This document shows, one piece after another, positions 15,531 to 41,800 of a DNA stretch of 64,000 nt. The DNA comes from Takakia lepidozioides. Its lineage: Eukaryota; Plantae; Bryophyta. The position numbers and the translations under genes were made by a program. The notes below the pieces were generated by a model, which searched no databases, was not told the DNA's origin, and saw only the letters and a list, made by a program, of their open reading frames with translations. The DNA lies in contig CM060731.1 in NCBI GenBank assembly GCA_030704615.1, positions 15,004,001 to 15,068,000 on the forward strand, in the 5' to 3' direction. Positions within the stretch are counted from its first letter, which is position 1; the number at the start of each line of letters is the position of its first letter.

Positions 15531-15973
15531 ATTAAGACTATGTGCATATATGTGTGGTGTGGTTTGGACAGCGATGTAGTTGTGTAGCGATATGTATGCG
15601 CACGACAGCTGTCAAGTTAAATAAGCGCAGTGTGAAAACAACTAGAATAAAGCTAGTTATTTGTATTTAACACTTGGATTTAAAATCAGGTGTCAAGTTT
15701 AGTTTGACACCTGAACCGCCTTATCTTCACGAGAGCGGCAGTCGCGTAGTTCATCTCTCTCGAGTTGAGCCTGCGCGACCGAGCTCCTTCATGCGTTTAG
15801 ATCTGAGTGTGCTATGATGGGAGTGTAGGTTGTTGTGGGTGGAGTCCCCATAGCTTGGGGTGCCCCTGGCTCGACTTCTATTTTAAAGAGTGATAGCGAT
15901 GGATTTCATATTTCTTGTGTTGAGAGTGTGTGCCCAGCGATGTAGTTGTGTAGCGATATGTATGCGCACGACA
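15531..15973 (+). repeat. G2 3' terminal repeat block B-gc-A-B
   Basis: PPT AGGGGGGCG 15522-15530; B 15531..15607; GC; A 15610..15935; partial B 15936..15973. Confidence 0.85.
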
Positions 15974-18940: not shown

Positions 18941-19421
18941 TGATACCTTAACAGAGGTATAGTCTGAGGTTGCTAGGGTCCCTTATGTTGATGATACCTT
19001 TATAGAGGTATAGTCTGAAAATGAGGGTTCTGTTTGGTATACTAACAGAGGTATAGTCTGAGCTGATTAGGGTCCACATATGGTGATACCTCAACAGAGG
19101 TATAAAAGGGACAAGCTCCTGTTTGGTATACTAACAGAGGTATAGTCTGAGCTGATTAGGGTTCACATATGGTGATACCTCAATAGAGGTATAGTAAATG
19201 GACAAGCTCCTGTTTGGTATACTAACAGAGGTAGAGTCTGAGCTGATTAGGGTTCACATATGGTGATACCTCAATAGAGGTATAGTAAAATGGACAAGTT
19301 CATGTTTGGTATACTAACAGAGGTATAGTCTCACATTAGGGTTCACATATGGTGATACCTCAACAGAGGTATAGTCAAAGGGACAAGCTCCTGTTTGGTA
19401 CACTAACAGAGGTATAGTCTG
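18941..19421. repeat. Tandem array, ~90-bp unit with two AGAGGTATAG-type cores (11 cores)
   Basis: Alternating GTTTGGTATACTAACAGAGGTATAGTC and GGTGATACCTCAAYAGAGGTATAG blocks. Confidence 0.85.
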
Positions 19422-21174
19422 AGCATACACTACTAGGGTTTGTAATGAAGAGCTAGAATGCAAGTCCTTGACTTCTATGCTTCTACTCAAGCAAAAATAT
19501 GGTCTCTAGTGGTCATAAGAGGCATCTTCTTGCTCTCTTCCACCCCAATGTGCAACCAAGAGTGGTCCAACTCAACTTGCAAGTCATTGTCCACCAAATC
19601 AATCCCCCTTCTAGTCCTTGGGATTTGATTGCAAACTACCATATCTCCATTGCCGAGCAATCATGCATTTGTCTCCTCATCACTTGACAATTGCTCCAAA
19701 TCAACACAAATTATCTCAATGTGTAGGAGCAATGCTTGTCACTTTACAATAATGCTCCCAAGCAATCCGCCTTGGATCCCACTCTCACGCCATATGCCTC
19801 ATTTGGGTCTTGCACCAATCCATCATCCATGTGCTCCCCGTGGTCATTTGAATGCATGTTTCATGACCTCTTGGCCTATGTGTTGCTCTCCTTCATCATA
19901 ACATAAATCAACACCTCTCCACTTCACACACAAATGGATCTCAAAGGCCTTCACCTCTTGCTAGTTCAAGAGCTCCCCTTCTCAAACTTGAACTTACAAA
20001 CTCAAGCGAGCATGCTCCACACATGCACCACTTGTTTGGTCAACTATCCACCACAAAGCTCGCACTACCAAGAGCATGAATAGCCAAGTATTGCCTCCCC
20101 CTCTTGTCACATTACATAGTTAGGGTGAAGCTATGCATACATTGAATGATGATTTCCCTTCAAGGATTTCCCACACATATTCTCCAAGCCCTTCCAATGG
20201 CACCCTAAGCTTGGCTCCACACCACCATGATTGGAAGATTTCTTCACATGCTCCCTTTCAACACCTCTTGAGCTTCTTAGTACTCTCCAAGTGCTTGCCC
20301 TTGTTGTCTTCAAGCCCAAGCATATATAGCTCCTTGGCTTCTCTTCCATAACATCCACACTTTGAACTTGCTTAACCCTAACTCGATAGTGAAATGAGCA
20401 CTAACAAGCCTTTAGTCACTCTCCACAAGCCATGGCGCACACCATCGACTCCATAATGCATACAAAGGATTTTCAAACCCTAGAATCCATGCTTCCACAC
20501 ACACAAGACTTCCTCCTTACAATCCTTGCAAAATCTTGTGACTCAAGAGCTTTCTTCTCAAGCTCTCCAACTCCTTGGTGCATGCAATACTCGAGCACCT
20601 TTCCTTGCAACCCCTTGCAAGCCTTGTGATACAAGAGCTAAATTCTCCTAGCTCTCAACCTCTTTAAAATACAAGTGCAAAACTAATCCTTACACTCCGC
20701 ACTCACAAGCATAAGGTGATCTTCTTGTAGTGATAAGAGATGAGAAATGAGAGAAGTAGAAGACAATGAAAGCTCTCAAAGCATGAAGCAATCACATGAA
20801 GAACAAGCCCTAGTCCTTCCAAGTGAAATCCACTCTATCACATAAACTAAGTCAAGCCAAGGGCACCTTTGCTAAAGGAATCCACCCTACAAAACCCTCA
20901 ACACACTCCCTCTCAATACCTAGAGCTATGGAGGTGAGAAAAGCTCATGGAGTCCGCTCAACTACAAGAAGATGAGCCTCCTCAACACTCACAAGGGAAA
21001 AACCTATCTCCATGTCTCAAGTGAGGCTCGACACCTCACTTGGCATGTGAGACCAAATGAAGTCCCAACACACAAAATATAAATATAAATATCTAAAATG
21101 TCCTAGTTAACTAGAAGTAGGTAATTCTAGATAACCATGACTAAAACCATGACAAGGGGGTCCCTCTTGTGACA

Positions 21175-21854: not shown

Positions 21855-22109
21855 GTGGACGATATATACCAATTTGCTAGTCGAGAACGAGCTGAACTTG
21901 CTCACGGCCGGAGAAGGAATTGATTATGGGTGTCAGTCATGAAGGCTGTGACAAATTGTTCAGGGTGCGCCACAAGCACATAATGGAAAGGACGAAGCTG
22001 CTTCTTTTCGCATATATGCCCAACAGCGACCGATTTTGGTGCAGCCTGGGAATGTTTTATCGAAGTCGCAAGAAATGGTGCCCTTATGAGGGACAGTCCA
22101 GTAAGCCTA

Positions 22110-22464
22110 TGTCAAGTTAAATAAACACAGTGTGAAACTAACTAGAATAAAACTAGTTATTTGTATTTAACACTTGGATTTAGTTCAAGTGTTAAGTTAG
22201 GTGTTAAGTTTGAGCTTGACACTTGAACCATCTTATCTTCACGAGAGCGTCAGTCGCGCAGCTCATCTCTCTCGAGTTGAGCCTGCGCGACCGAGCTCCT
22301 TCACGCTTTAGAATCTGAGTGTGCTTATGTAGGGAGTATAAGTTGTTGTGGGGTGGAGTCCCCATAGCTTGGGGTGCCCCTGGCTCGACTATTATCTTAA
22401 CGAGTGATGCTGCTGGATTCATGTTGTTTCTTGTGTGAACAGTGTGTTCTTAGCTTTCTTATCA
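22110..22464 (+). repeat. G3 5' partial LTR (segment A)
   Basis: Matches 34340..34694. Confidence 0.88.
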
Positions 22465-22466
22465 CT

Positions 22467-22478
22467 CGAGAGAGATGA
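22467..22478 (+). promoter_or_regulatory. G3 putative self-priming primer-binding site
   Basis: 22464-22478 is the reverse complement of 22263-22277; it begins 2 nt after the LTR-terminal CA. Confidence 0.7.
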
Positions 22479-23889
22479 CGCTATCTAGTTTTCTAGTGCT
22501 AAGCTAGATACAATGTTTTTTTTTTAGCACTATTATAATATATATCTTGGGGCAGGAGTCCATCTGGCCCTGCTGTTGCCATGGGTATGCGTTTGTTGTT
22601 TACACATTGGCGTTGGTGGTGATCAGGGTGTAGTTATCCCTGTTTGTGGTGGCGGGTGCGTGCGGGGGCCCTGGCAGCCCTGCTGCTTGAGTGCTGGGGC
22701 AGGCTGAGCACCCAGTAAGCCAGTCGTGCCCAACTTGTGTGGTCCGTTGTGTTGCAGCCCAAGAAGGGCCATTGGCTTGTAGCCCATTCTGGCTTGCAGG
22801 CATATTGCTGGATTCACCGTGACCTATAGAGTTGATGATTTTACTTGGTGGGAGCGGTAGCTTGTCAAGAACCAGGTTGGCATGAGTGTAGAAATTGGCC
22901 AAGTTGGCCCCAAGTTCTTGGTGATGGAGTCTTGCAGGGACCACTGAACTGTCTGCCTGCACCTGTGTTGCTGCTTGTCCCTGTGCGGAGTCTCCGGACG
23001 TGCTGTCGACCAGTCTCAGCGTTGCGCGCTCGTGTATGGTGTGCGAGTAGTGAAGGTCGAACGAGAAGCAGAGCGCGCTGGATGGCGGGGCGCAGGGATG
23101 CACCATCTCTCCCATCCTTTGTTCCGCTGTTTTTATGGAAACACTTTGCTCATCAGTTTTTTTGGATCAAGAACCGAGGTGCAGAACAAGCCTTTCACAT
23201 CTTGTGGTGCTGGGGAGGCAGCGGAAGAGCAGAATGTGATTGGTAATGTTGGGGGACTGTAGAGAGGGATTGAGAGATGTACTCAAATGGAGCAGCAGAT
23301 TATGGTTTTCACTGATGCGTGATGCTTGCTTGCTGACCAGATTAAGGACTGGGTTATGGAGCTGAAAGCGGGATCCTACTTGTCAAGGCCCAAGTACGGA
23401 GTCCCTTCCAAGTGGTAGCTACGCCTCCTACGAAGCCTTCAGGGATCCCAACAAGATTAGGTCATAACACTTCGCTGTTTCTGTATGCGGGTATTCTATG
23501 CACCGTGAACTGTCTTTTGGCTTGACCAACACCTAGTAATCTGGTCGAAGAAGGGGCCTATAATGGGAAGAATCGCCCTTTTGAATATCTGGCATGTAGG
23601 TCAGCACTGGAGCATGGAACAGCGCTGACTGGAGTTCTTTAAAGATCCTTCACAATGATGCGACTGCAGCTTTGGCAATATGCTTATGTAGAACGTGAAG
23701 GAGTCTGTCAGGAAGGATATTTACTGACTCTGTTATTGTGAACTGGATTGTACCCCTGGTGGTTGAATGACGTAAGAGTCTTGGTTTTTCCTCGGAAAAA
23801 GGCTCTTACTGTCAGCAGCTTAGGTTGCTCTTTCTAAGCAGGGCAGGGAAGGAGGAAATTCGGGGTTTTTTCCCTTGTAGCTGGCAAGG

Positions 23890-24039
23890 TGCTTAGAATG
23901 GTTAAACAGCCATCCTCCGTCATCGGTTCTCTATATTGCCTTTGGAACCGTAGCACTACTCATTGCCACACAGATTGATCAGCTAGCTCTCGGACTCGAA
24001 GCCAGTGGACAACAGTTCTTTTGGGTTTTGAGAGCCCCT
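23890..24039 (+). pseudogene. Captured fragment of a plant family-1 UDP-glycosyltransferase
   Basis: Translates CLEWLNSHPPSSVLYIAFGTVALLIATQIDQLALGLEASGQQFFWVLRAP, the conserved segment that precedes the PSPG box. Confidence 0.85.
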
Positions 24040-24780
24040 GCCAGTAAACAAGGATCAGAGGGCAGATCTGCCACAAAGCCAGGCACATTGCAGAGTGGTC
24101 GAGGCACTCGTACTTCCGTGCACTGCAGCTGGGTTTCCACATAGCCAACGGGCTTGAAGAAAGGTTTTAGTTGGGGATCACTCAATTTGGACACTGCTAA
24201 GCTGGTGTGTGGGGCAGGCTTTGCAGGAACTTGCTTGCCAGCTTTACTTCAATGAAACTTGTGAGGGTGCCAAGGTGAACTGTTGCTAAGGGGAAATGAG
24301 CTCCACGACCTCCATCGTCACCACGGTTTTGTGTAGAAGACGGTTGGGATTCCAAAGCATGGTGAGCTGTTGAACTCAAATGAAATGGAGGGGAACAACA
24401 GGCACGTGGCCAGGGAACCTAGGAAACCATATAGAACTTAGGGAACCGGGAACCAGTTACCAGATATTTTGGGTGTAACTTTAAATTTTTAAATTTGAAA
24501 ACCTTAAAAAAAAAAAAAAAAAAAAAACCCTTTTGATCTAATTTAAATGATTTAGAGCCAAATTGGTCATTTTGTCAAATGGACTCTGTTTGACTCAGTT
24601 TTTGAGGGGATAGCTGCAAAAAGGGGAAATCTATTATCTAGACCTGGTTTTAGTTTTTGGGACTCTGCTAAGAATCTATGGAATTTTTAGAGTGTGAGTG
24701 TGCCATGAAAGATCCACAATTCTGTTTCTAGAACCTGTTCTGGTCTACATGAGAGATAAATCTGGGGATGTACTCCTTGT

Positions 24781-25302
24781 ATGGCTGGGGGAAATGAGGA
24801 CGTCATTGAAGGGCAGGTCTCTTCTCTTAGCCCGTGCACACAAGGGGACAGGATTTATGTTTCCCAAGGAACTCAGACTGATTTGAGTGGAGAACAGTTG
24901 GACGAGTTGATTGCATACTGGGAGTCAGGCATTAGCAGTAGACAACAAACTGCTGTAGTTGGCGTTGAGGGCCTCAATATTGCTTTGGACAGTCAGAACT
25001 CTGTTGGAGCCAGCAGTTCTGCAGCTGTAGGTGAAATACCAAAGTGGGTGAAAGCTAGGCTTGGAACACAGCCAAAGACAGCCCCGGGGACCAAGGTGTT
25101 CAGCCACAAGGCCGTGGTGTACTGGAGCAGAGGAGCAGGAGCTACACAAGTTTGTGCAATCAGACATGGTTGCAGCCGGACACGCTCTGCACAAGGCAAC
25201 CACGAGCGGGGGTTCATTGACAATGACAAGTTTGTTTTGCTTGAAGGAGATGCAGTCATTCGCAATGAGGACACCCGCAACGTCTCAAAGCTTTCGAGTT
25301 GA
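24781..25302 (+). CDS. Possible accessory ORF upstream of G3 gag, unknown function
   Basis: 173-aa ATG ORF; segment absent from G2; no recognised motif. Confidence 0.3.
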   Translation: MAGGNEDVIEGQVSSLSPCTQGDRIYVSQGTQTDLSGEQLDELIAYWESGISSRQQTAVVGVEGLNIALDSQNSVGASSSAAVGEIPKWVKARLGTQPKTAPGTKVFSHKAVVYWSRGAGATQVCAIRHGCSRTRSAQGNHERGFIDNDKFVLLEGDAVIRNEDTRNVSKLSS

Positions 25303-28300
25303 GAGACTGTCAGACCCTACCTTTGTTTTCTTTAGTGTTCAGTGAGCGGAGATAGGGGAGTACTGCTTTGTCTCTACCTGGCAGAAAGAGGAGGAGGGTT
25401 GGTTAGAGCGAGCTACTGTAGCTTGGGACAAGGTTAGTGGCAGTTTTGGACATAGATATACCGCCTACACCTTACCATCATGCAGAGCGAGGCACTTTGA
25501 GAGAAGTAGCAGTTGATAGCATAGATCAGGATTAGATCTTGCTTGGTCGGGCTTCTATTCTTCCCCTCCATCTCTTTACTATTTTCATTACTTGTACTTG
25601 TAGTTGCCAAAGCCTCTCTTGGTGGAGGCCAGTCAGTCCGGGGTTTTGGGCTGGGATATTCTGCAGGATCAGCATTGCAGATGGATTTTGGTGTGGGGGT
25701 GTTGATGTTTTGATTTCTTGTGTTTGGATCCCCCCCAACACCTGCATGCTTGACTGTGCGCCATGTTGGTTTTGTGTGGGCGCTTGCTTTCATAGGGATT
25801 AGGCCGGATTTGATCACCGGTCAATCCTAGAGTATGCTGTCGGTGGTGAGGCTGGAGTGATGACCAGCAAGACCACCAGTGTTTCTTCTATGGTGAACTG
25901 GGTTGATGACAGCCAACCATAGGAGTTCTTGCGGTGGATGCAGGTGCAGGTGCCCTGAGCCACTGGGATATGACCCTTAAACTGCAACAGTGCCACCGTG
26001 TCACTATTAGAATTAGTACTAGAGCCTTATAGTGTCACGTGGGGAGGTGCACATTGTGAGTGTCATCACGGAGTTACCCAGGGGTTCTGAGGGGAGTACG
26101 GCTACAGGCAGTAACAGTGAGAGTGGGTTCACCAGACGAGGTGTTCGTTTCAGACCACCTTCACCTCCACCCTCAACTAGTGCAGAGTCAGACACAGACT
26201 CGGAGGCTTCATCAACAGGTGTGCAGTTTCATTCGCCATTGTTGTGGGACGACATGGAGGAGATGTATGGAGCTACCAAGGGGCCTCGTAGGTACTCTGG
26301 AGCTGTGGGCACAATTGAGCTGGATGACTTTATCCAGGAGTTCGACAGCTGGTGTGATTTGCAGCAGATGCGCAATCCACAGCTATTCACCCCATTCATG
26401 GCGTGGAAGGGACTGTTCCAGCATTTGGAAGGCCCGCCTATGGACGATTACCACGAGTTCAGGCGAGGACATGAAGCAGAGATTGAGGAGTGGAGGATGT
26501 ATTGGTCACCTGACTACGTCTCCATTACTCGAGGCACGACGCGACCAGTAGCTGCATCAGTACCAATATCTCCCACTGCCAGCACTAGTAGTGGAACAAG
26601 TAGTGCGGTACTTCTGCAGGTGGTACCAGTTCAAAAAGGTGCTACTACTCCTCCTGCCACGACTACAACACATGTGCCTAGATTCAACCCGGTGGTGGAG
26701 TTCTTCCAGGAGTTGCGGAGGAACTACCAAGGTGTACGGACAGAGAAGCTGCGAAGTTTGCAAGACTTCCAGCGCAAACCCAGTGAGAGCTGCGAGAGGC
26801 GTACACTCGTATGAGGCGCTTGATAAGTGTGACCCAAGGGGTTACTGAAGCTCAGCAATCCAGTTTGGTATGGAATTCTGGACAAGGAGCTCAGAGAAGG
26901 GTGCGAGATGCAACCCTGTTACAAGCAGCCCAACCCACATTAGCAGATGTGTTTCTGCTGGCTGAGCGGATTGAGCTCAACATGGTGGAGGAGCGAGTTG
27001 TTACCATTGGATTTGGCAAGGACATGCCTGCACGAGGCGCAGCTGCCAGCCCACAGGCACAAGGGACTGCCCAACAGCGTGGTCAGGGGGGCAAGGTTTC
27101 CCAACCATGGAGCTTACAGGGGACCTCAGGTGCAGAGGCCCGTGGCATCTTTTGCAGGCCAACAGCAACCAGGGGTGATATGTTGGACATGTGGAGGACC
27201 CCATGTCAAGAGAGATTGCCCAGAGAGTGGCAGAAGGCCGGCACAAGCACAGCCTGCACAGTTGCAGTGTGGGCATTGTGGCAAGTATGGGCATGGAGAT
27301 GCCCAGTGTTATGACTTGCATCCTGAGTTGCGCCCAGGCCAGTTCCAAGGGAACAATGGTGGCCGGGGGCGAGGTGGACCAGCCCAGAGAGGACGAGGTG
27401 GTCGGGCACGAGGTGCAGGCCAAGGGCAAGCTCAACATGGCCAAGGACGCGGAGGTCAGGGTGTTGACCAAGGCATGGCCAACCGGCTTCAGCAGCTAGA
27501 GCAGAGGCTCGCTGCCATGGCTACAGCTCAGCAGGCTCCCGGGATGGTCCACCTCCTGCTCCTGAGGGAGGAGATATGGGAGGCATGGGATTCATGTGCG
27601 GAGCAGCACTACCACTAGAGCAGGTGGAGTCTGCTGCTGCAGCCGTGACTCGAGGAGCAGCACGAGTTCCTGAGCCACGAGGTGCAGAGGTGGAATTGGA
27701 TCCACAGCGTGGGGAGGCAAGCCGTCAGGCGAGGCTTCCTCAGTCATTCACATTGGCGGAGACTGTGTCGACGCCATCCATGGCACCTAGTTCTCGCCCG
27801 ACTGTTACCGAGGCGGAGGTTACTATGCCATTGGGGAGAGCTACACGTGCAGCACTGACACCTGCTGCCAAGGCTAGTGCAGCCGGTGTGTTGGGGGCAG
27901 CCACCTCTGTGTGTCAAGCCCCACTGTTCTCGGCAACCATGATTGCGACGCGGGGGGGTAAGACCAGCTGCAGTGTTCAGACTAGCAGCAACACTCTGTG
28001 AGAGTGGGGAGGTCACTTCATCTTCTGCGGAGTTACTGGAAGGTGTAGTGGCAGAGGGATCCTCGGATTTGAGGGTCAAGACTGCCACGGCTGCGCCATG
28101 GCAAGCTGCAGCTGCCAGGTTGACGGAGCTGCCAGCTAGGCCAGCCTTTGAGCGCGCCATGGTGACACCTGGAGTTGTCTTGTTAGACAACCAGGAGGCA
28201 TTTTCACTTTGAGTGGACCGGCAGGCAAGAAGTACCGGCCACTGCGGGGTCTTGTTGGACTCAGGAGCTCAGCCACTGATGTTGGGCAGAGCTGCTATTG

Positions 28301-28954
28301 CAGGTTTGGGCCTCATGGAGGCGGATATGGAGCCTTGTCCTTTCCAGATACAGACATCTCTGGGAGGATCAGAGCAGGCTCGGGCATGACACGGCTGTTG
28401 GCCATTAGACTGCAACCGGATCATCCTGTAGATGGCAGTGATGCGAGCCAAGGCCATTGTGACACAGACGCGGTCTCTTACGATGTTTGTTGGTGGGGCG
28501 TGTTATATCCCATGGGCTTCACCCTGGATTTTGGGAGGAGTCAGCATCCTACAGGCCTGGATGGCAGTCAGGGGATGGTCGTCGTGCACAGCTCCCTGTG
28601 ACATTCATTGGGGGTATTGCGGCTGCCCAGCGGGGCAAGATGCCAACACTAGCCGCCTTTACAGCTGCAGTTAGTTGGCCTGGAGAGTTGCTGGAAGGCA
28701 ATGCCCATGCAGAGGATGTGCCACCTCCAGCAGAGCAGGATGACATGCATGGTACGGCGGAGTTGCCTGCCATGGTTGCTCACACTCCATTGTGGGGTAC
28801 GAGCAAGGATTTGCAGCAGGCTGCTGATGGACGGGTGCAACAAGCCTGGGTAGAGGCCTTCGTACCGTCAGGAGAAGAGGAGAGTGCGGTGATTGCACCA
28901 GGACCACCTCAGTTGTCGCCATTGGACACCACACCTCTTGTGTGGCAGTGCCGG

Positions 28955-29900
28955 ATGAAGGCATATGCCTTCTGGACTTGTTTGGCGGGATCAGCACTGG
29001 ATTGGCTGCAGTACTGCAGGCAGGTGTACGAGTTCGACGTTACCTGTATGTGGAGAGGGATGAGACTGCACGACGCGTCTCACTGCGCCATGTTGGTTGG
29101 TACAGCAGTACCCTGATTTGTTGCCAGTGTCTGCAGTTCGTGGATACCAACAAGCCTTGCCAGCAGACATTTCGTTGCTGGGGGCGCAGGATTTGGAGCG
29201 GGTTGGCTCCATTGATCTGGTAGTGGCAGGTTGGCCCTGCCAAGGGCATTCATCAGCCGGGCATGGCAATGGATTGCGAGACTCGAGGACGGGTCTGTTT
29301 TGGGAGATGGTGCGGATTTTGCGCCACTTGCAGCTTCATCAAGCTGTATCTCCAGCATACATCTTGGAGAATGTGCCACTGATGGGTGATTCTCGGGCCA
29401 GGGTGATGGCCAGTGTGCATCAAGTCCGGTCGTGGCTTGGGTCAGCAGTGTTGCTGGATGCAGCTGCAATGGGCTCATCGTCCACGGCTATGGTGGACTA
29501 ACTTGATGCCACCCGCACTGCTCAAGCGTGCATTTGATGGGGTGCAGCGGCCAGCACACCTCACAGTGGATAGCATTTTGGACACAGGGAGGCAGTCTCA
29601 ACGTGTGAGACACGATGACCGTTCGCCTTTGGCAGTGGTCAACAGGGGGTCAACCACGAGCAGCATTACCTACACTGCTCAGCTTCCCAGGATCCCATGC
29701 TTTTCGGGATGGTGGACCTGGCCTTGTGGGATAGCCAGTTGCAACAATTAGTGGAGCCAATGCTGACGAGCGCGAGCGGGCGATGGGTTTTCCACTGGTA
29801 CCACGGCGGTGCCATCTCTTTCTGAGGCATCACGTCGTCAGGTGTTGGGGCAAGCAATGGATCTCAATTGCTTGACCTGGATTATCAGCTTGGCTATGGC
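28955..29900 (+). pseudogene. G3 DNMT3-like C5 methyltransferase domain, catalytic motifs intact
   Basis: EGICLLDLFGGI, YVERD, DLVVAGWPCQG, YILENV, HRPRLWWTNL, MGF..RRQVLGQAMD. Confidence 0.9.
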
Positions 29901-32900
29901 TGAGCACGCAGAGTACGGAGTACACTTCCCTTCATGGTCTCCCTGCCTACCGAGACGGTACAGGCAGCGAGTGGGGGCGAGCAGGTGAGGACCACGAGGT
30001 GCAGGCCGCATCCATGGCACACGTGGGAGGTGCTCGAGGTTCAGAGGAGTTGGCAGCCAAGGCGGCGGTGATGGATCAGGTTGGGGATTTTCTCGGATTG
30101 AGGAGGTCTCAAGGATGGGATGATGGGGCAGGATGAGGATTGTCACTGACAGAGGAAGTGGTCACTGCTCAAGAGGTTGCAGCATAGCAACCACGGGACG
30201 CGTCTCTACCTCTAAGCCTGCTGGACTCAAGGTTGCAGTCACGGAGGACAACTGGGAGCCTGATTTGGGTCACCGGAGGAGAGAGACGACGTATACGGCG
30301 GTTTTGAGGCTTACAGGAACTGCTTTGCCTTCAGTTTGAAGGACTTAGGAGCACTGAAGGGTCAAGAGCGCATTGAATTGGCTACTGACACGCCAATCTT
30401 TCGGAGACCCTATAGATACAGTGACTTGAGAGGTCCTTGATTCAGATGAGAACTCAGGACCTTGGGAGGCTGGTTTGGTTGAGCTATCTGGGGGAGAGTA
30501 TGCTTCAGCCACAGTGATGCCAGCCAAGAAGGACATTGGACGGAGAGACGTATGTGCGTGATTACCGGCCTGTAAATCGTCAGACCAAGTCCGATAGGTA
30601 TGCCATGCCAACACCAGAGGAGATCTTTGATGCCATTGGGCATGCCAAGGTCTTTAGCACGTTGGATTTACGATCCGGATATCACCAGTTGCCGATCAAG
30701 GAGGCGGATAAGCAAAAGACGACATTTTGGGGGATCAATGAGAACTCAGGACCTTGAGCTATCTGGGGGAGAGTATGCTTTGATGAAGCAATTATGTGCG
30801 GTGATTTGGTCAAGTCCGATAGGTATGCCATGGAGGAGATCTTTGGGCATGTCTTTTTGGGAGCCAATTGCCGATTTCCAATCGAGCTATCATGCTTCAC
30901 CACAGTGATGGAATTGGACGAGAGACGTATGTGCGGTGATTTGTAAATCGTTCCTCCATGAGGAATTAGCACACTCACCAGTTGCCGATGGATCATTGAT
31001 TCAGGAGATGAGCTATCTATGCTTCAGCCACAATGATGGACCGGAGAGACGTATGTGCGGTGATTACCGGCCTGTAAATCGTGTCCGATAGGTATGCCAT
31101 TCTTTGACATTGGGCATGCCAAGGCCCGATCCGGAGTTGGATTGATAGACGGCATCAATAGGACCTTTGGGAGGCTGGTTTGGTTGAGCTATCTGGGGGA
31201 GAGTATGCTTCAGCCACAGTGATGCCAGCCAAGAAGGATGTCTTTGGCAATTGGACGGAGAGACGTATGTGCGGTGATTACCGGCTGTAAATCGTCAGAC
31301 CAAGTCCGATAGGTATGCCATGCCAACATCAGAGGAGATCTTTGATGCCATTGGGCATCCAAGGTCTTTAGCACGTTGGATTTACGATCCGGATATCACC
31401 AGTTGCCGATCAAGGAGGCGGATAAGCAAAAGACGGCATTCTGGGGATCAATGAGCACGGGAAGGATTGCCTATACCAGTGGCGGTTCTTACCATTTGGG
31501 CTTAAAACGCTCCGCAGAGTTTCAAGAGAGTCATGGACAGGATTCTAGCAAGGGTGGAGTTTGCTCGGTGCTACATAGATGACATCATCATCTTTAGTGC
31601 TACGGTGGAAGAGCATGAGAGACACCTTCAGGGGGTATTTGAGCGCTTGAGGGCGCACGGATTGAAGTTACATCCGGGAAAGTGCAAGTTTTTCCACAAC
31701 CAGATTGAGTATCTGGGTCACATGATATATCCTGGAGGATGGGGGTACAGTAGACTAAGGTAGAGTCCATTGCACAGGTTCCACGCCCCACGGATGTGAG
31801 CCGAGTTCGAGCTTTCATGGGGTTAGCAAACTATTATAGACGGTTTGTTAAGGGATTTAGTGCCATTGCAAAGGCTCTAACCAAGCTGACCAAGGTGGAC
31901 CAGGAGTGGCAGTGGGAAGATGAGCAAGAACAAGCTTTTCAAGAGCTCAAGGCGAGGTTGACCTCGGCGCCCATCTTGAGACGACCTATCAGGGGGCGTC
32001 TTTTCAGCTGCATACAGATTGGAGCATGCTGGGGCTTGGAGCGGTGCTCACACAGGTGGATGATGAGGGAAGAGAGTTTGTAGTGGCTTATGCTAGCCGC
32101 TCGAACAATGTTGCAGAGTCTAAGTATAGCTCATATGAGGGAGAATGCTTAGCTGCAGTGTGGGCCGTGGCACACTTCAGGTGCTATCTATACGGCAATC
32201 TCTTCACCCTTGTCACGGATCACCAACCACTCAAGTGGTTGATGGAGTCAGACAAGCTTACGGGGAAGCTTGCACGGTGGGCACTCATCCTTCAAGAGTA
32301 TGACTTTCAGGTGGTGCATCGACCGGGTTTGGTCAATCGCAATGCAGATGGGTTGAGTCGCAATCCATGCACGAGCCAGCAGGATGACACTGGAGCTCGG
32401 TGGCATGGTGACGAGGAGATGGTGCCCGGATGGCATGCATCTGCATTTCTGTGTATCTTGGCAGCGGAAGGCCAGGTTGGACCTGCAACAGGGATGACTG
32501 TAGATCAAGTGTCTGAGGACCCTGAGGCCAGCAATGAGCAAGGCGCCAAAGATATACATGAGGATTCAGTTGTGTTGGACTACCTCCGCACTGGAGACTG
32601 CAGCCACTGTGACTGCCAAGGAGAGGGATCGGATCCTACAACGAGCCAAGAGGTTCAAGTGGGAGGGGACACACCTGCTCGAGTGTGGGAGGATGGTCGA
32701 GTGAGGATTGTGCCTCACCCAACACAGCGGGCACGGTTAGTGCGGCATGCCCATGAGGAGTTGGGGCATTTTGGGGTGCGACGCACTCATAGTCTACTGC
32801 AAGGGCAGTATTGGTGGCGTGGTATGCACACAGAGGTGCAACAATTTGTGGCTAGGTGCATGGTGTGTGACAGGGTGCGTGCTTCATTCAACGCCCCTAC

Positions 32901-33844
32901 TCCACAATTGCACCCTCTTCCGATCATGGGATTGGGCTACAGGTGGAGTCTTGACTTCGCAGGGCGTTGCCACTGACCATGCGCCACAACAAGTACGTGT
33001 TGGTGATGGTGGAGCACTTCTCCAAGTGGATTGAATTGGTTCCATTGCCTGATAAGGCTAGTGAGGGAGCTGCGTATGCATTCTTGGATTGTGTGCTTAG
33101 CCGATTCGGTGCTCCAGCTGAGGTACTCACGGACCAAGGGAGAGAGTTCTTGGGGGAGTTTCAAGCTTTGTGTGACAAGGCCTTGATAGACCACCGCACC
33201 ACTTCTCGGGATCATCCTGAGGCCGATGGCTTGGCAGAGAGAGTTGTTCAGACAGTAAAGAGGGGTTTGCGCAAGTATGGCTTGCAGAAGGGACACCTAG
33301 GAGATTGGGACCTTCAGTTACCCTGGTTAGCCATGGGCTACAGGTTCAGCAAGCAAGCATCACTTGCCTCCTTCTCGCCATACTTTCTTCTCTTTGGCCG
33401 AGAGCCGGATTTGCCTACATCCACTCGCAGAGAAGCTGCTACAGTTCTTAACCTTGACGATCCGGACGTGTGGGCACGTGCATATGAGCAGCGTGCAGAG
33501 TTGTTCAAGAAAGTCATGCCCATGGCTTTCGAGAACCTTGCCATTGCACAACATCGTGATACGTTGAGGTATGTTACCATACGTGGTGGGGGCTATCGTC
33601 TTGGGGTTTGGAGATTCAACCCTGGTGACTATGTCTATCTGCAGCAGACTGCTCCTACGACCTTGGATGTGACTGCAGGACGTGTTATTTTGAGGGTTCG
33701 AGAGGTTTTGCCCTCAGGCGTCTTGGTCTTGGAGGGTCGAGATGGCATAACTTGGAAGGACCATGTGCGTAATTCTGCGCCATGTCACCTTCCGAATGTC
33801 GATGGCAGGATTGACCCAAACCTGGCAGTGGTATCTGCAAGTTT

Positions 33845-33992
33845 GAAATGCATGTTGTGTGGGTCTGCTAGAAGGGCAGCCATCATGCTGATGTGTGATC
33901 GATGCTCTAGAGGTTGGCATATAGGATGCTTGACTCCACCTCTTGAGATGGTTCCTACTGGGGATTGGTTATGTCCGCATTGCATTGGATAG
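33845..33992 (+). other. PHD finger at integrase C-terminus
   Basis: CMLCGSARRAAIMLMCDRCSRGWHIGCLTPPLEMVPTGDWLCPHC fits C4HC3. Confidence 0.9.
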
Positions 33993-34241
33993 TGGGAGTG
34001 GATACAACCATGGGAGGCTAACAAGAAATGCAAGACCAAGCTACTAAGAGACCTTGAACACCCGAGATCCTGGCTCAAGTTCACAGATTGCAAGACGGCG
34101 ACTAACGATGGGGCTACTCTTGTACCCGGCCTCTTGGTCTACAGAGTTTGAGTACAACAGGGACAATGATAGAGGACTTAGTACGGCTGTGGCTATTACA
34201 TCTTGTAGCTATCTGGAGTTAGAGGGACCTATCCACCAGCT

Positions 34242-34250
34242 AAGGGGGCG
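34242..34250 (+). promoter_or_regulatory. G3 polypurine tract
   Basis: AAGGGGGCG followed by AT and TGTGGCAG. Confidence 0.75.
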
Positions 34251-34252
34251 AT

Positions 34253-34694
34253 TGTGGCAGACTACTTTATTGTGCATATATGTGTGGTGTGGTTTGGACA
34301 GCGATGTAGTTGTGTAGCGATATGTATGTGCACGACAGCTGTCAAGTTAAATAAACACAGTGTGAAACTAACTAGAATAAAACTAGTTATTTGTATTTAA
34401 CACTTGGATTTAGTTCAAGTGTTAAGTCAAGTGTCAAGTTTGAGCTTGACACCTGAACCATCTTATCTTCACGAGAGCGTCAGTCGAGCAGCTCATCTCT
34501 CTCGAGTTGAGCCTGCGCGACCGAGCTCCTTCACGCTTTAGAATCTGAGTGTGCTTATGTATGGAGTATAGGGTGTTGTGGGGTGGAGTCCCCATAGCTT
34601 GGGGTGCCCCTGGCTCGACTATTATCTTAACGAGTGATGCTGCTGGATTCATGTTGTTTCTTGTGTGAACAGTGTGTTCTTAGCTTTCTTATCA
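34253..34694 (+). repeat. G3 complete canonical LTR (TG..CA, 442 bp) = B-gc-A
   Basis: Starts 2 nt after the PPT; ends TTATCA, the position that precedes the PBS in the 5' copy. Confidence 0.8.
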
Positions 34695-34698
34695 CTAT

Positions 34699-34783
34699 TG
34701 TGGCAGACTACTTTATTATGCATATATGTGTGGTGTGGTTTGGACAGCGATGTAGTTGTGTAGCGATATGTATGCGCACGACA
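34699..34783 (+). repeat. G3 terminal segment B (first 85 bp of the LTR), relocated to the right end
   Basis: Duplicate of 34253..34337, joined via CA-CT-AT-TG at 34693-34700. Confidence 0.88.
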
Positions 34784-37700
34784 TCTACCTGAGTATATGG
34801 TTCTTCTGGAGAATTATGTCTGAAAATGTACATGCTCAGCTATAGGATTTTCTTGACACCCAATCAGCGCACACTAACCGGGCATGAAAGGTCGTGACAA
34901 GTTGGACTTAGTTAGGCGCTCTTTTAATGGCACTCGCATGATCGCACTGCATATTGCCCAAAGGCAGGCAAGCCTGTGGGCCAACCTCGGTCGTGTCTCC
35001 AAAAGCTTGGAGCGCCATCATTAGACAGAACCCAGCGTTGTAGTGTTCCAGGAGTACCTCAAGGATTCTCATTCTCTTGGACCCTGCTGACGATGACGAA
35101 TTCCAATTTGCAAAGGCAGAGCTGAAATAAACTTCGCAAGTGCCCATTGGCAAAGACGACATTGGAGCTTGTGGACAACGTTCCACAGATCACGCAAATT
35201 CCTTGTCCACACCAAACGAGTATGTCTCAGTCTCTGCACCACTGCAGACGGCAGCTCACTGAGCGCCCACTGGCTCTACGAATCATCTCTATATACCCAC
35301 ACAATTGCATTGAAAGCCTCTAAACCCATTCGACCGCCGTTCGGTTGACCACTTTTCCCCAGCTTGTGATGCTCAAATTTAGTGTTACTACTACTAACAT
35401 TTCTGCTCCAACGACGAAATTCTTCGAACAAACAGCCTAGTATGATCAGAGAGAGAGAGAGAGGGGGGGGGAGAGAGATTTACATTGAATGAGTGACATT
35501 ACTGACATTACCATTGGTGGCAGTTTTCTTTTTCGTTTTTCAAAGCCACGGGTCACATGTAAATTCTACACAGTGCCCATGTGGCGATATCAACGAGGTG
35601 GCAGGGTAAGAAAACTGGTTATATAACGGTGGCACGTTTTGCGAGTTCCACGTAAGCAAATTTAGGCTCTTGATTGGAGGCTTGCCTCTCCCCTCCAACT
35701 TACTACCTGCAACTACTAACTAATCTATGCCTAGGTCTCCACTAAAATATTATAGATATTATATATCATATTATATTTCTATAGTCCATATATTATAAAT
35801 GATTTATTAGATAGTAGAGGCTACATGTTGTACCTACACAGGGCTACATCAGCACCTACTATCTACCTTAAAAAGCAAAAATATGGAACAGGTACCATAG
35901 CTAGGGTATACTTGGCCTATTTTGCCATCATTGGAAGATGCTGTAAGACACTGGATTTCTTAAATGTTTAAAACAGTTTTAGACATGCAATCAACTTCAA
36001 GAGCAAATAGTTCAGAACCAGATGTCAAGATTCTCCGTGTTTAATCTGAATTTGCAAGCTGCAATTACGATGTTCTTGTGGTCACATATGACAGAATCCA
36101 TGGAAGCTGTTGTGTTTTGTGATGGATCATTACATGTCAAGCTTTGAAATCAACCAAGACCAAGCTTTAAATTCATTCTGTGGTGTCATGAGCATACATC
36201 ACCATTGTCCAGACCACTCACTCTTTCAATCTTTCAGTCATGGCATTATGCTGAGGTTGAAGATATCTAAGGGGTGTGGTGTATTCTCTCTCTCTCAAAT
36301 TTTTCAAGTTTGTTCTGCTTTCCGGACTGAATCTTTCAGTGACTTTCCAGGATAGTTCTACCAAAAGTGAAACACTCATGCTCGAATGCTTACACATGCT
36401 CGAGATACAGAGCTCATCTCCTGAACTGTTTTTTCCTCCTAGGCTGAAACCCTAAGCGATACAATTGTAGCCGTTGCTAATTTGAAGCTGCACGCTTTGA
36501 ATCATCCCGCGTGTCAACGTCGCATCCTTTTGCATGCATCGCATTACGTGCCCATGCGCAACATTTCTCTAGTGTCGCGACTCTGAAGCAAGGCACACCC
36601 GAGATTGTTTTGGTCTGATTAGGAGAGAGAGACGACAAGGTTTCAGATCCGTCAATGCGTCAGACTTGTCTTCCACTGCACGCTTGATCCCGCAAAGGAT
36701 AGAATCTCAAGATGATTTGAAAGAGAGTGAAGTATGCATGGAGGTGCAAACTAGCTGGTTAGTAGAGCTTTCTACCTACGAAGCAACCATGGCGACAGTG
36801 CAGTAACGATTAGAGGCTTGTGTCCAATTTCTCGAAGAGATTTTACAACTCCTTACCTTTCTGCCTACAGATTTTCAAGAAATTATTGGGCTGAAGTTGT
36901 GAGAAGCCATTACGATGCCAGCATATCGTTCCGCTAAAGTATCACAATGTCCGCTATCTCTTGCACGCAGTGCTCAGTGCTGCGTCTGGAGGCTCCTTGA
37001 CACCATTCAGCAGGGGGAAGTCGTCAACATGTCATTCTCCTCAATACCCTAAGCTCTGCTCAAGGTTAGGTGACGGTAACGAAGAGGATTTGTGTGCATT
37101 ACTGAATAATCTTACCTTGGAAGATGTGGGGGCTTCAGGTCCAACACCGATGGCAGGCCCTCCCGAACGTAATGAGGGAGGCAAGGAGTCGTCAGCCGAA
37201 GGCTACTCGATACCACTCCAAACATCTCCTCTCAAACTCTTCGTCTTATGCTCCATCTTGGCCAACTGCATTATCAGCGCTTGAATCAGACTCTTTCGTT
37301 CCACATCTGTCGCAACAGTCTCTCTTCCCGTCATTCCGCACAAGGTGTTTAGTAAGACCCAAACTCAGCCTGATGTCACCTTGGACAAACATGGACAGCA
37401 AACAGCAAACGGATTTGGAACGATTTAGTCTCCATCTACTAGTAAGAGCTCATCTTCTGATAGCATCATACCTCTCCATAGTCACACATTTTGCTCAAGG
37501 TTAGATGACCGTTTGCAGGCTGGAAGTTTCTAGCAAGTTGGCAATTGCTACATTGTTGTTGTGGCGGTGCTGGCACTCTGAAAGTCCGCATGCATGGAAA
37601 TATGCAATGGGTTCAATTGGGATATTTAAATTGGGTCGTTTGTTTTATGCTAAGAGTGTTAGCCTGTTAGTTGGATTATCCTTTCAGCTGTGCTTAACAT

Positions 37701-38408
37701 ATTTCTGAAGGTGTGTTTCAGATGGATTCTCAACAATCAGCTACAGGCCAAATAGCTGCGGATCGCAACGTAACCACATTTCCACATAGAACAACAGACG
37801 CATCAAGAGAATCAAAGCCTCAATGCGTCAATTCAGCAGCCGGCTTGAAGGTCCTCCAGTGTCTTATTTTGCAGTGCTGTTGAGAGAGTGCTTGAAAGTA
37901 GTTGGACTGCCTTGTTTTAGCCACTTGCGCACTGTTAGGAGGATCTGAAGGCTCTAAAGAAACGTTCAACCACCACCACACTTTTCCCTCAATCACCCCT
38001 GTAATGGTAATAAGAGATATGGTTCATCTTCTGTACACAAAAGGCTTTCCTGGGCCTTGAGTCTCCTGTTGATTGCAACTATGCTCCAAATGTCTCCTAA
38101 CAAGATTGGGCCTCAGTGCTATGTTTTGTTTGCCCTTGAGAGAATTACAACTTCGATTTATGATACATGTGGAAGTTTCAAAAATTGGTTATGTTGTGTT
38201 GCAGCATGCTTTGACTGGAGATCAAGACTTAGTTGTTCGTGCATCTGCCCCTTTTGCTGGTCACGTGCCCTCCTGTCAGGAGTCGCCCACTCCAGATGCA
38301 TTTGGTTTCAGTGATCAGGAGCTTCAGGAACACCCCGTTTCTGCTACAGGGAAAGTAGACACATCACTTGATAATTCTCAGGAAGTGGCCAGCTTACATC
38401 CTTTGGGC

Positions 38409-38817
38409 TATTAAAAGCAACTTCAGTACCCACTGACAACTACCAAGTATGCACGCACTTGGAAAGACTTTTAAATAATACACAGAACAAATGGTACTTG
38501 GAATACCCAGCAGTATGTATATTAAATGCAACAAGGATCAGTGATCACTGATCCTTACAAGGTCCTTAGGCAAGGACATGCACTCTTCTATAGCTTGGAG
38601 AGACACACTGCACTCACTCAGTCCGCTTTTAAGCTCAGCTAGCCACAGGACAAGAGAGAGTGACCAGACTACAACACCAGCCTTAGTGCTACAGGAACTG
38701 GGCAGGAGCCTCGCTCTCGGGTTCCTGTAGCCGCCCTGATTCAAACTGAGCCTGGCTGTCCCGCGGTGGTGGGTGCAAGCACTTCATGCCGTATAGCCGC
38801 GGTAGCTATTTCTGATA
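38409..38817 (-). repeat. Copia 3' LTR
   Basis: Direct repeat of 43173..43575. Confidence 0.93.
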
Positions 38818-38829
38818 CTCCCACTCGGG

Positions 38830-41800
38830 ATGAAGTGCCTTCTTCTTCGGATTCGATGTGAACTTCGGTAAGGCCAAGCATTGACTTGAGACGTTCGAAG
38901 CGAGGACGTTGTAGTGGCTTGGTTAGTATATCAGCCAACTGGTTGTTTGTATGAACATACTCTAGGCGGATAGTGCCCATGATGTATTCCTCTCGAATCT
39001 TGTGATATTGAACGTCGGATGGCGGCTTGATTGTCGCATAGCAGAGCAGTCGGTCCTCGCTGCGGATAGCCGAGATCGGTGAGAAGCTGGCGCATCCATA
39101 CTATCTCCTTGGTCGCTGTGTATGCGGCAATGTATTCGGCCTCTGTGGTGCTTGTTGCTGTGCATCCCTGCTTCTTGCTACCCCATGCAACGGGCCCACC
39201 ATTTAGCATGAGAACGAAGCCCGTTCTAGACTTCTTGTCATCCAAGTCGCCGGCATAATCAGCATCGATGTAGGCCACCAGCTGGTTGGCGGTGTTGTCG
39301 TTCGGGGCAGAGTATGTGATGCAGACGTCTGAGTGGCCATGAAAATGCTTGGGCAGGCGCTTGGCGCCGTTCACATGTGGTGTCTTGGGATTCTGGACAA
39401 ATTGAGCAATCTTGCTTGTCGCGAAGCTGACATCTAGACGGGTACCTGTGCTTGCAAACAGGACGCTACCAACTACTAGACGGTAGGGAAAACTAGTATT
39501 GACTTCATCATTGGCTGTAGAGAAGTACTCAAGGGTGCTACAGGGGTCAGCTGGCAAAGATATGGGGGCAGCATCTAGAAAGCCATATTTGGAAGAAATT
39601 TGTCGACGTAACGAGACTGATCAATCTGTATAGTGCGACGTGCCCTATCACGTGTTATCCGCAGCCCTACATATATCTCGGGACTGGACGTTGTTATTTT
39701 AAAAGCCTTCCCCATAAATCCGATTATGGTGATGACTCCCATCGTGCAGGTAACGTTACACAGAATACCATCGTCTACAAAGATCATAAGGATCAACCTA
39801 GGGTTTTTGGTGCTAACGTAAACAAACGCATCTGCAGACGTCTGGACTAGACTGTACTTGGTGAGAAAATCATTAAAACGTTGGTTCCAAACTCTACTGG
39901 ACTGTTTTAGACCATATAGAGCTTTCTGCAACTTACAGACTTTGCCTACAGGGAAAAGATCCTCGAAGCTGATCGGAGGAGCCATGTAAATTTCTTCTGT
40001 AATCTCCCCATGCAGAAAAGCTGCAGTGACATCGAACTGGGTCATCTCCAAATCTTCTGCGGCAACGATCGATAGTACAGCACGAATCGAGTTGAATTTA
40101 ACCACAGGACTGAAGGTTTCGTCATAGTCAACCCCTTCTTGTTGTGTAAACCCTTTCGCCACCAGTCTTGCTTTGTATCGCTCGATGCCTCCTTACAGAT
40201 TGTGTTTCAATTTGAACACCCACTTGTTCTTGACGAGGTTTTTTCCGGCTGGGAGATCACAAACCGTCCAAGTGTTGTTCTCGATGAGTGCATTATACTC
40301 AAACTGCATCGCTGCACTCCAATTGCTGGACTGTGGCGAATTCAGTGCTTCTTGCATTGTGAATGGCTCCTGGGGTTCTGCTATAGCTGTGCTCGTGGAC
40401 GTACGCCCAGTCACCATACCTATTGACGGGCTTTCGCTCTCTACCGCTGTATGGACTCAGTGGAGGTGCTGCACCCACTGGTTCAAATGCCTGTGGTATA
40501 CCGTCTGGCTGGACTCCCACTGGCACGATAGCTGGTGATATCTCCTGTGTGCGCTGCACTCCCACTGATTGCAATGCAGGCTGGGATGTGGCTGTACTGA
40601 TGTGGAACTGATGATCGACGGTGGGAAGATAAGGGGACTCCATCGTTAGATCTTCCCACGATGCCAACGTATCGTATGTGGATCCGTCGGGCTGATCAGT
40701 GTAGGCGTCACTCCCAGAATTCAGGTGTGCTACCTGATTGCTATTGCTGTGCTCATCTTGTGAACTGTAGTCACTGCCTGACGAGGTAGATGGAAGATCT
40801 ACCGGAGTTGATATCAGATCGGGGGTGGAGTAGATGACGATTGCTCTTGCGCTGTCTGGTTCACCTTGGACAGCCAGCAGGATGGTGTCATCGCGCTTGC
40901 CTTGTGATTTCCTTCTGTCTTGATCACTGACGACTGTGTTCAATGAGCCCACGTTGAAGATCACATCTCTGCTCTCCATGATTCTGTGTGTGTCGTTATT
41001 CCAGATTCGATAAGTTTTGCTCGTGCTGCTATTCCCCATAAAGATGCCTGGCTTGGCTTTGGGGTCTAGCTTCTTCCGAAGCTTGCGCACGTGAACGTAG
41101 GCATCTGAACCGAAAACCTTCATGTGCGCAACTGACGGCTTGACTCCATGCCAGCTCTCGAAAGGCGTCAGACCAGGTAGTGTACTAGTACCTGTGCGGT
41201 TCAGTGTGTACATGGCAGTAGCGACTGCTTCGCCCCAAAATCGCAGATGAATATCCGCAGAATATATCATGCATCTTGCTGCCTCCACTACGGTTCTGTT
41301 CTCCCTCTCAGCGGATCCATTCTGCTCCAGTGTGTGGGGGCAGGTGAGCTGTACTTCGATGTTCTTGTCTTCCAAGAACTTGTTCACGGCCTTGCATGTG
41401 AACTCGCCACCACGGTCGGATCGTAGTACTCGTATATCGAACCCTGTTTCTCTGTGCAGAGTTGCAGCGAACTTCTTTAAGCAAGAGAAAACATCAGACT
41501 TCTGCTTGATGATGTAGATGGTTCGATAATGCGAGTGGTCATCCTTGAACAACACGAATAAAGACGCTCCAGCTACTGTCTTTTTGTTCATGGGTTCACA
41601 TACATCCGCATGTATGATGCCGCCAACTGTGGCTGCATACACCCGATCTTCCTTCAGCGGAAAGGGTGCGCGATGAATCTTGCCGAGTACGCATCCAACG
41701 CATAAGCTTGGGTGTTGAGTATCGCCGCTCAGCTGCAAACCTTCGACAAGGTTCTGTGAGGCCGCCCTTCTGGGTTTCCATTCCAAAGGTGTTGGCAACG

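Follow-up and report, generated by a model that had tools for sequence, protein, structure and literature searches.

A bryophyte Ty3/Gypsy family with a DNMT3-like methyltransferase in its Gag-protease frame and end repeats that suggest integration from a circular intermediate

The known element of the kind considered here is KnitGypsy-Dnmt3 of the streptophyte alga Klebsormidium nitens (de Mendoza et al., 2018; PMC5890265), whose methyltransferase, according to the review file of that paper, shares an open reading frame with reverse transcriptase (RT) and RNase H. In yeast, the isolated KnitGypsy-Dnmt3 domain produced no methylation, a result that its authors call inconclusive; SymbioDIRS-Dnmt3 was reported to methylate CG sites de novo in the same host, and a role in the methylation of cDNA was proposed for it (PMC5890265). 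Self-limitation was also raised for transposon methyltransferases, and the available text of the paper contains no replication model for the ends of KnitGypsy-Dnmt3 and, supplementary text included, no occurrence of "Marchantia" (PMC5890265). The use that a transposon makes of its own cytosine methyltransferase has been in question since 2018, and experimental manipulation of the known hosts is difficult.

For land plants such as tracheophytes, transposon-encoded methylases are described as absent in one review (PMC6338049), and two other sources speak of "streptophytes", naming no bryophyte elements in their accessible portions (PMC12344493; bioRxiv 10.64898/2026.05.21.726589). The accessible portions of six further papers make no mention of them (PMC9516144; PMC9985172; PMC12885004; PMC2864245; PMC8557442; PMC5009743). 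Titles and abstracts in the literature yielded nothing on the bryophyte element described here, on its stop or on circle integration by a Gypsy integrase; supplementary trees and figures may hold bryophyte copies. From another class of elements, a circular intermediate has been proposed to explain the repeat order of the PAT and Ngaro type (PMC3266345; PMC9210276).

The window analysed here, a stretch of 64,000 nucleotides from contig CM060731.1 of the bryophyte Takakia lepidozioides, contains three decayed copies (E1, E2 and E3) of one Ty3/Gypsy family, with the following copies and coding regions (the latter in E3):

22110-34783, plus strand: copy E3, complete ends TGTCA...GACA, 12.7 kb
22106-22109 (CCTA) and 34784-34787 (TCTA): target duplication of E3, 4 bp, one mismatch
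4903-15973, plus strand: copy E2, within the protease region of E1, target duplication CGGT/CGAT
1-4902, minus strand: 3' piece of copy E1, with protease, methyltransferase, stop at 2919, RT, RNase H and integrase
15974-18650, minus strand: 5' piece of copy E1, gag ATG at 17975
26254-27023, plus strand: N-terminal part of Gag, ATG at 26254, frameshifted, similar to Marchantia protein P0005
28129-28609, plus strand: aspartic protease, LLDSGA, frameshifted
30269-31801, plus strand: reverse transcriptase (RVT_1 match in copy E1)
31975-32337, plus strand: RNase H (PF17917, E 1.9e-35)
32719-33554, plus strand: DDE integrase, zinc-binding H2C2 and rve core
33810-33992, plus strand: C-terminal PHD finger, then stop (PF00628, E 5.2e-10)

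The coding order is Gag, protease, methyltransferase, stop, RT, RNase H, DDE integrase and PHD finger, and both the protease-RT-RNase H-integrase succession and the DDE integrase are those of Ty3/Gypsy elements. In copy E2, Retrotrans_gag gives a weak match and gag-asp_proteas one below the cut-off (E 0.0048). The 27 window ORFs scanned gave no match to a tyrosine recombinase, an rve integrase being present, and no chromodomain was matched, the integrase ORF (32955-33992) ending at the PHD finger. Copy E2 is nested in E1, a member of its own family, on the opposite strand, with target-duplication sites at 4899-4902 and 15974-15977; the outer end of the E1 5' piece (15974-18650) was looked for and not found. 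The RT region of E3 contains a scrambled tandem duplication of RT pieces (~30456-31458) that is possibly an assembly artefact. In PHD fingers, a Trp two places before the zinc-binding His forms the H3K4me3 cage. The window PHD finger (33810-33989) is without this Trp, and therefore likely reads unmethylated H3K4, as the ADD domain of DNMT3 does.

Elsewhere in the window lie a Ty1/Copia element (38408-43575, minus strand) with 410-bp LTRs that are 94% alike and rve, SH3 and RVT_2 domains, a tandem array of about five 90-bp units (18949-19424) near the 5' part of E1, and another integrase core remnant (61897-62133, minus strand) with 31% identity to the probe. A host gene occupies 54831-58620 on the minus strand; its product is a DUF2921 transmembrane protein that is E3-ligase-like and has several lipocalin-like domains at its N terminus.

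The methyltransferase was located in each copy, with its motifs in E3, as follows:

28957-29904, plus strand: DNMT3-like C5 cytosine methyltransferase of E3, motifs I-X in canonical order, frameshifted (PF00145)
4171-3196, minus strand: methyltransferase copy in E1
10908-11880, plus strand: methyltransferase copy in E2, PSQ
28978, plus strand: motif I, LFGG
29047, plus strand: motif II, YVERDE
29232, plus strand: motif IV, WPCQG
29367, plus strand: motif VI, ENV
29476, plus strand: motif VIII, HRPRL
29768, plus strand: motif IX, ERERAMG
29833, plus strand: motif X, RRQVLGQAMD

A sequence-only reading of this DNA had reported C5-methyltransferase motifs in non-permuted order, PCQ included, in all three copies. 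The canonical order stands, but PCQ is present in only two of the three, E2 having WPSQG at 11187. Frameshifts interrupt all three methyltransferase copies, that at 28957-29904 shifting frame twice within probe matches; in E1, as the same reading had noted, protease and methyltransferase share one frame, which extends up to 3569. The PF00145 search proposed there gave two in-frame window pieces above the 22-bit cut-off, at 29064-29501 (E 1.1e-13, 51.8 bits) and at 3569-4909 on the minus strand (E 3.5e-11, 43.6 bits). The circular permutation of DRM-type enzymes (motifs VI-X before I-V) was looked for in the window domain and is absent, the order running from I to X. Among 30 PDB sequences matched by the in-frame E1 domain, 29 are DNMT3A, DNMT3B or DNMT3C (best E 1.1e-6). 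A structure model was built for the Calypogeia relative P0204 (not a window copy; 45-row alignment, pLDDT 93.4), for which Foldseek ranked DNMT3A/B first (E 5.8e-18). In a wide structural search, this model aligned with DNMT3B at Z 24.6 (rmsd 2.8, 261 aligned), with M.MpeI at Z 21.5, with M.HhaI at Z 18.7 and with DRM2 at Z 10.2, the last over 134 aligned residues that cover model residues 11-156 only. Motif order together with the best sequence and fold matches thus bears out the earlier assignment to DNMT3 rather than to the permuted DRM type, and the window domain is confirmed, as far as its sequence and the modelled fold of a relative go, as a non-permuted DNMT3-like C5 methyltransferase with predicted activity.

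Relatives of this domain are numerous. A search of 1.84 billion representatives returned 249 proteins at E 1e-30 or better, and those named among 30 looked-up matches come from Marchantia, Calypogeia, Closterium, Scenedesmus, Mesostigma and Klebsormidium nitens. Close relatives, with up to ~70% identity, sit on Marchantia, Calypogeia and Sphagnum chromosomes, several of them on contigs of 8-47 Mb, so that the system reaches land plants. The 18 longer relatives include 14 from Marchantia polymorpha and one from Sphagnum fallax, and the 44 near-length relatives include four from Calypogeia fissa, three from Sphagnum and two from Marchantia. An extension to embryophytes, which had been proposed because the host of the window looked like a land plant, is thereby upheld by relatives in three bryophyte genera on chromosome-scale contigs, and the extension of methyltransferase-bearing Gypsy elements to bryophytes is solid. 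Vascular plants, hornworts and Physcomitrium gave no named match among 62 proteins, a weak negative from a word-limited search.

A metagenome scan added 73 loci, most with the same architecture, and those placed in a tree group with a Sphagnum protein. In an IQ-TREE analysis of 40 rows, the window domain falls in a 13-row clade (100/99) whose named members are all bryophytes, and stands weakly next to a Calypogeia row (91/78). Two architectures are found among the relatives: the methyltransferase follows the protease in all named streptophytes, and sits between RNase H and integrase in Scenedesmus (e.g., P0079, Scenedesmus sp.) and many others. The second, with the order RT-RNase H-methyltransferase-integrase-PHD, is the commoner (51 of the 62 rows in the RT tree; proteins P0027-P0168); it is recovered as a supported clade (100/97) when the methyltransferases are compared, the sole named member being a chlorophyte, and its existence indicates that the domain has moved within the polyprotein. 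In the RT tree, the protease-adjacent type stays together (11/62 rows, 0.983), which indicates that RT and methyltransferase travel together. With one named K. nitens row and no outgroup, FastTree grouped all protease-adjacent methyltransferases at 0.971, but IQ-TREE (40 rows) did not support their monophyly, and we therefore make no claim of a single origin for this type.

Methyltransferases that adjoin the protease or precede RT were seen across streptophyte algae, namely in Closterium (P0045, P0137, P0190), Mesostigma viride (P0161, P0258) and Klebsormidium nitens (P0113). In the Closterium models, and also in the proteins P0184 and P0189, no stop separates the methyltransferase from RT. 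A further protein of 1177 aa, P0018, combines a C5 methyltransferase domain with a precomputed PF05869 (Dam) match; by eye it looks like a DIRS-type Pol, perhaps from a dual-methyltransferase element.

The broken state of every window copy raises the question of whether the domain is an artefact or a passenger, that is, a captured piece of a host gene, a misassembly, a product of neutral drift or an algal contaminant. Between E2 and E3, 79 of the 106 indels have lengths of 1 mod 3, as would be expected from long-read error or decay, and other copies in short-read contigs keep bases that are missing from the window copy; the frame breaks in the window copies are thus either private decay or long-read error. 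Such an origin for the domain is nevertheless extremely improbable: the same architecture recurs in the three bryophyte genera and in most of the metagenome loci, the domain is under purifying selection (below), and 17,979 and 22,375 short-read contigs (two runs, one sample) fall on a 2.4-kb region of the element. These numbers point to a very abundant family in the sampled organism, contig depth not being equal to copy number. The DUF2921 gene of the same window is also of land-plant type, its protein being 35-39% identical to angiosperm proteins, with a best match of 53% (among proteins of 969-2765 aa). Taken with the bryophyte clade of the methyltransferase tree, this gene makes a liverwort or moss the likely host on sequence evidence.

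Selection was assessed by pairwise Nei-Gojobori comparison of the best single-frame match per locus, with four divergent loci (L067-L070) left out and near-duplicates removed (62 to 56 loci). For the methyltransferase, window E1 differs from 54 loci with pS 0.72 and pN 0.23 (dN 0.28, dS ~2.4, near saturation), and RT differs with dN 0.225 and dS 1.97; the dN/dS ratio between families is ~0.11 for both, with dS near saturation. Within the metagenome family, where the ratios are dominated by post-insertion decay, dN/dS is 0.65 for the methyltransferase, 0.70 for the protease, 0.46 for RT, 0.36 for RNase H, 0.42 for the integrase and 0.42 for Gag. The dN/dS comparison that had been suggested across copies thus indicates purifying selection between families and weaker selection within one, and by these ratios the methyltransferase is constrained over long times and less constrained than the core enzymes in recent copies.

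This weaker recent constraint, together with the inactivity of the Klebsormidium domain in yeast (PMC5890265), would suit a module that binds nucleic acid or modifies RNA, or that depends on a host cofactor, and so does not methylate cDNA. We regard this as unlikely, given that catalytic residues are kept in 98-99% of relatives chosen by similarity: in the 179 aligned relatives so chosen, 172 of 173 filled rows carry the catalytic Cys and 177 of 179 carry the motif VI Glu, and the two Arg of motif VIII are present in 174/178 and 173/176. The modelled fold also comes nearest to DNMT3, and DNMT2 scores lower (Z 17-18.5).

Where the enzyme stands in the expression of the element is indicated by a conserved stop:

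30185-30193, plus strand: in-frame stop TAG-CAA-CCA, end of the Gag-protease-methyltransferase frame, predicted readthrough site

TAG-CAA-CCA is present in all three window copies (30185, 12149 and, on the minus strand, 2919). The methyltransferase had been described as embedded in a polyprotein between protease and RT; its position is as described, but owing to the in-frame TAG it does not form one open frame with RT. Forty copies with both the methyltransferase end and the RT start were examined, ten of which have an indel in the linker. In all 30 same-frame copies a stop occupies one and the same position (19 TAG, 11 TAA), and CAA follows it directly in 29. With CAA-CCA, the three window copies fit the CAR-YYA consensus, a context that readthrough in TMV requires after the stop (PMC2754532); the stop context in the metagenome family, CAA-CCC within a different protein sequence, is one base off. 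Gene models from Marchantia (P0001, P0005, P0006) and Calypogeia (P0203) end 91-93 residues past motif X, and metagenome protein P0214 ends similarly; P0005, from the annotated Marchantia gene Mp_4g09160, is a 1278-aa Gag-protease-methyltransferase model with the methyltransferase at about residues 879-1204. These Marchantia and Calypogeia gene models look intact and are known here as protein sequences.

Because the conserved stop lies 3' of the methyltransferase, the enzyme belongs to the Gag-protease frame and its output is predicted to be at the level of Gag, so that the position of the stop predicts enzyme stoichiometry. RT and integrase are very probably made by readthrough of this stop, a prediction against which stand the 11 TAA stops in 30 copies and the CAA-CCC of the second family. 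In the metagenome family, an ATG two codons past the stop makes reinitiation possible there; it is absent in the family of the window.

The ends of the element are the second source of evidence, with the following features in E3:

22110-22464, plus strand: terminal repeat A1, 355 bp, 347/355 identical to A2
22263-22277, plus strand: predicted self-primer and predicted 5' end of the transcript, 15-nt exact complement of the site after A1
22464-22478, plus strand: predicted primer-binding site for self-priming, with a duplex that stops at the A of the terminal CA
34242-34252, plus strand: polypurine tract and two bases before B1
34253-34337, plus strand: repeat B1, 85 bp, TG...CA, 83/85 identical to B2
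34334-34343: palindrome GACA-GC-TGTC at the B1/A2 join, its halves equal to the outer ends of the element; predicted integrase site
34340-34694, plus strand: repeat A2
34690-34703, plus strand: A2/B2 junction, interpreted as a fusion of the two predicted cDNA ends that here encloses three primer-site bases
34699-34783, plus strand: repeat B2, right end of the element

The layout of E3 is A1...B1-GC-A2-B2, with unrelated flanks after 34783 in 40 contigs (run X3), and the identity of A1 and A2 indicates a fairly young insertion. As in other Ty3/Gypsy elements, the ends are TG...CA and the target duplication is 4 bp long; duplications flank all eight complete loci, six of them perfectly, and also the two complete copies of the window, each with one mismatch. 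In place of two full identical LTRs, the ends read A...B-A-B or A...B. Many loci are the same insertion in several assemblies, and the counts given here are therefore not independent.

The 15-nt complement exceeds the maximum of 12 reached in 2000 shuffles (RNA fold z -4.2), and in the window's family the predicted start has no evident TATA box upstream of it. The metagenome family, whose repeat sequence is unrelated, has an unrelated 12-nt primer complement with a duplex ending on the same A, and its polypurine tract, junction and palindrome follow the same logic. The best match of this complement lies at position 161-164 of A in 12 of 20 5' repeats, the others being mutated or partial. The polypurine tract adjoins B1, not A2, and the predicted linear cDNA runs from the A after this tract to the C before the primer duplex. 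In 7/7 metagenome loci, which represent six insertions, two with point changes, the predicted cDNA ends meet exactly at the A2/B2 junction. The three primer-site bases that E3 has at this point are missing from 8194/13,726 depth units of run X3 and from 103/177 of X1, 17 of 27 junction depth units in run X5 are without two primer-site bases, and E2 has a deletion across the junction. Integrated copies begin and end with the halves of the B/A palindrome, and no B precedes 5' A among the 5' A copies listed. As features of the DNA, the conserved stop and the end structure are solid, and the latter suggests that A...B-A-B represents a permuted LTR, B-GC-A.

Two accounts of this structure have to be weighed. 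In the first, a DDE integrase inserts a two-LTR circle that is opened inside the LTR; in the second, A...B-A-B is a split-direct-repeat design of the PAT and Ngaro type that is inherited as such, with a transcript that reaches B2 and a junction copied from the parent. The layout is the same as that of PAT/Ngaro repeats (PMC9210276; PMC3266345) and of KnitGypsy-Dnmt3, and the uniform junction of the metagenome family, identical in all seven loci apart from point changes, speaks for inheritance and against the circle. The form A-B-A...B was likewise not seen, though a circle has two palindromes. An inherited design is nonetheless doubtful, since in two families with unrelated repeats the junction equals a primer-defined right end joined to a polypurine-tract-defined left end, and in the window's family it varies by exactly the primer-site bases and is crossed by the E2 deletion. 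The DDE integrase, the target duplications and the lack of a tyrosine recombinase match in the scanned ORFs weigh in the same direction. Insertion of a two-LTR circle by the DDE integrase is thus the probable account, and the circular intermediate that the sequence-only reading had mentioned in passing is favoured by the self-primer, polypurine tract, junction and palindrome.

Copies of the A...B form, without A2-B2 (10 of 17 3' ends bearing a polypurine tract), were considered as insertions of one-LTR circles, and this was rejected. Loci L007 (B only) and L048 (B-A-B) have right flanks 94.6% identical over 93 nt, so that at least one such copy arose by later B1-B2 recombination; L007:13371-13575 and L048:7607-8263 are the same insertion site, with B and B-A-B in different assemblies.

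With a rough probability of 0.5, we propose that the methyltransferase is made at the level of Gag, is packaged and likely methylates newly made cDNA of the element itself, a two-LTR circle being the likely form from which this cDNA inserts. The enzyme would be produced at the end of the Gag-protease frame, and RT and integrase would follow by readthrough of the conserved stop. Self-priming of the Tf1 type would yield a linear cDNA whose true LTR is B-GC-A; the protease would free the methyltransferase, and the cytosines of the cDNA would be methylated before integration. The cDNA ends would be joined into a circle, which the integrase would open at the palindrome of the left LTR to give A...B-A-B. 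Methylated cDNA might then pass as host DNA or land pre-silenced.

Given its fusion to Gag, its conserved catalytic residues and an intermediate that is extrachromosomal and double-stranded, the enzyme most likely serves to methylate cDNA, a role to which, taken by itself, we give an even chance. The enzyme may instead act on chromosomal DNA, on integrated copies or competing elements, and so damp transposition or shape the insertion site. Enzyme made at Gag level would far exceed cDNA, self-limitation has been raised before (PMC5890265), and E2 and E3 differ by transitions more often at CG (6.8% of sites) and CHG (7.5%) than at CHH (3.0%). CpG observed/expected is likewise 0.48-0.56 in the element copies and 0.80 in the adjacent Copia element. 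We consider a chromosomal target improbable: the CG/CHG signature is explained equally well by host silencing, host exons and intergenic DNA are equally CpG-poor (0.37-0.71), and the Gag fusion points to the particle. For retroviruses, an end-joined two-LTR circle has long been discarded as a route of integration. If the proposed cycle is true, two rules would be broken at once, by a DDE integrase that inserts a circle and by a DNMT3-like enzyme at capsid level. More tentative is the broader picture of an old green-plant Ty3 lineage, alive in peat mosses and in liverworts, the model Marchantia among them, that combines circle insertion at an LTR palindrome with a leaky-stop DNMT3-like enzyme at capsid level and cDNA methylated before integration.

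The relatives in Marchantia polymorpha, for which methylation mutants and routine transformation exist, provide a testable system, and the end structure suggests a specific way, open to checking, in which a DDE integrase could make use of a circle. Contrary to the review cited above (PMC6338049), bryophytes clearly have transposon-encoded methylases. The permuted-LTR reading may also explain the "DIRS-like" repeats noted for the Klebsormidium element.

Among known systems, KnitGypsy-Dnmt3 shares with the window element its Ty3/Gypsy domains, an intronless, non-permuted DNMT3-like domain with catalytic residues, purifying selection and, by the legend of Fig. 4c, a DIRS-like repeat layout (PMC5890265). 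The K. nitens protein GAQ93235.1 (P0113), recovered in our domain search, has the same order of zinc knuckle, protease and methyltransferase. The window element and its relatives differ in their land-plant hosts and high copy number, and in the conserved stop that separates methyltransferase and RT in 30/30 same-frame copies, the frame being the same; the K. nitens domain is also distant from the bryophyte methyltransferases. SymbioDIRS-Dnmt3 and the EpiLTRs likewise bear a C5 methyltransferase on a retrotransposon, but belong to other element classes and hosts, and the EpiLTR enzymes are described as the sister group of DNMT4 and are accompanied by DAM and a chromodomain (PMC5890265; bioRxiv 10.64898/2026.05.21.726589). 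The in-frame stop-CAA-CCA resembles the UAG-CAR-YYA of tobamoviruses and the case of rice RIRE2 (PMC2754532), with the difference that here the stop comes after protease and methyltransferase. PAT, TOC1, kangaroo and Ngaro have the same A1...B1-A2-B2 layout but, as described, use a tyrosine recombinase, with a DIRS1 model that involves no target duplication (PMC3266345; PMC9210276), whereas the window element combines a DDE integrase with TG...CA ends and 4-bp duplications, and also has a polypurine tract and a self-priming site. Finally, Tf1/Sushi and plant Tcn1 elements are also Ty3/Gypsy, with predicted self-priming in place of a tRNA primer and occurrence in non-seed plants; these chromoviruses are reported with ordinary LTRs and a chromodomain (PMC6317226; PMC2864245), whereas the repeats of the window element are permuted and it carries a PHD finger along with a methyltransferase.
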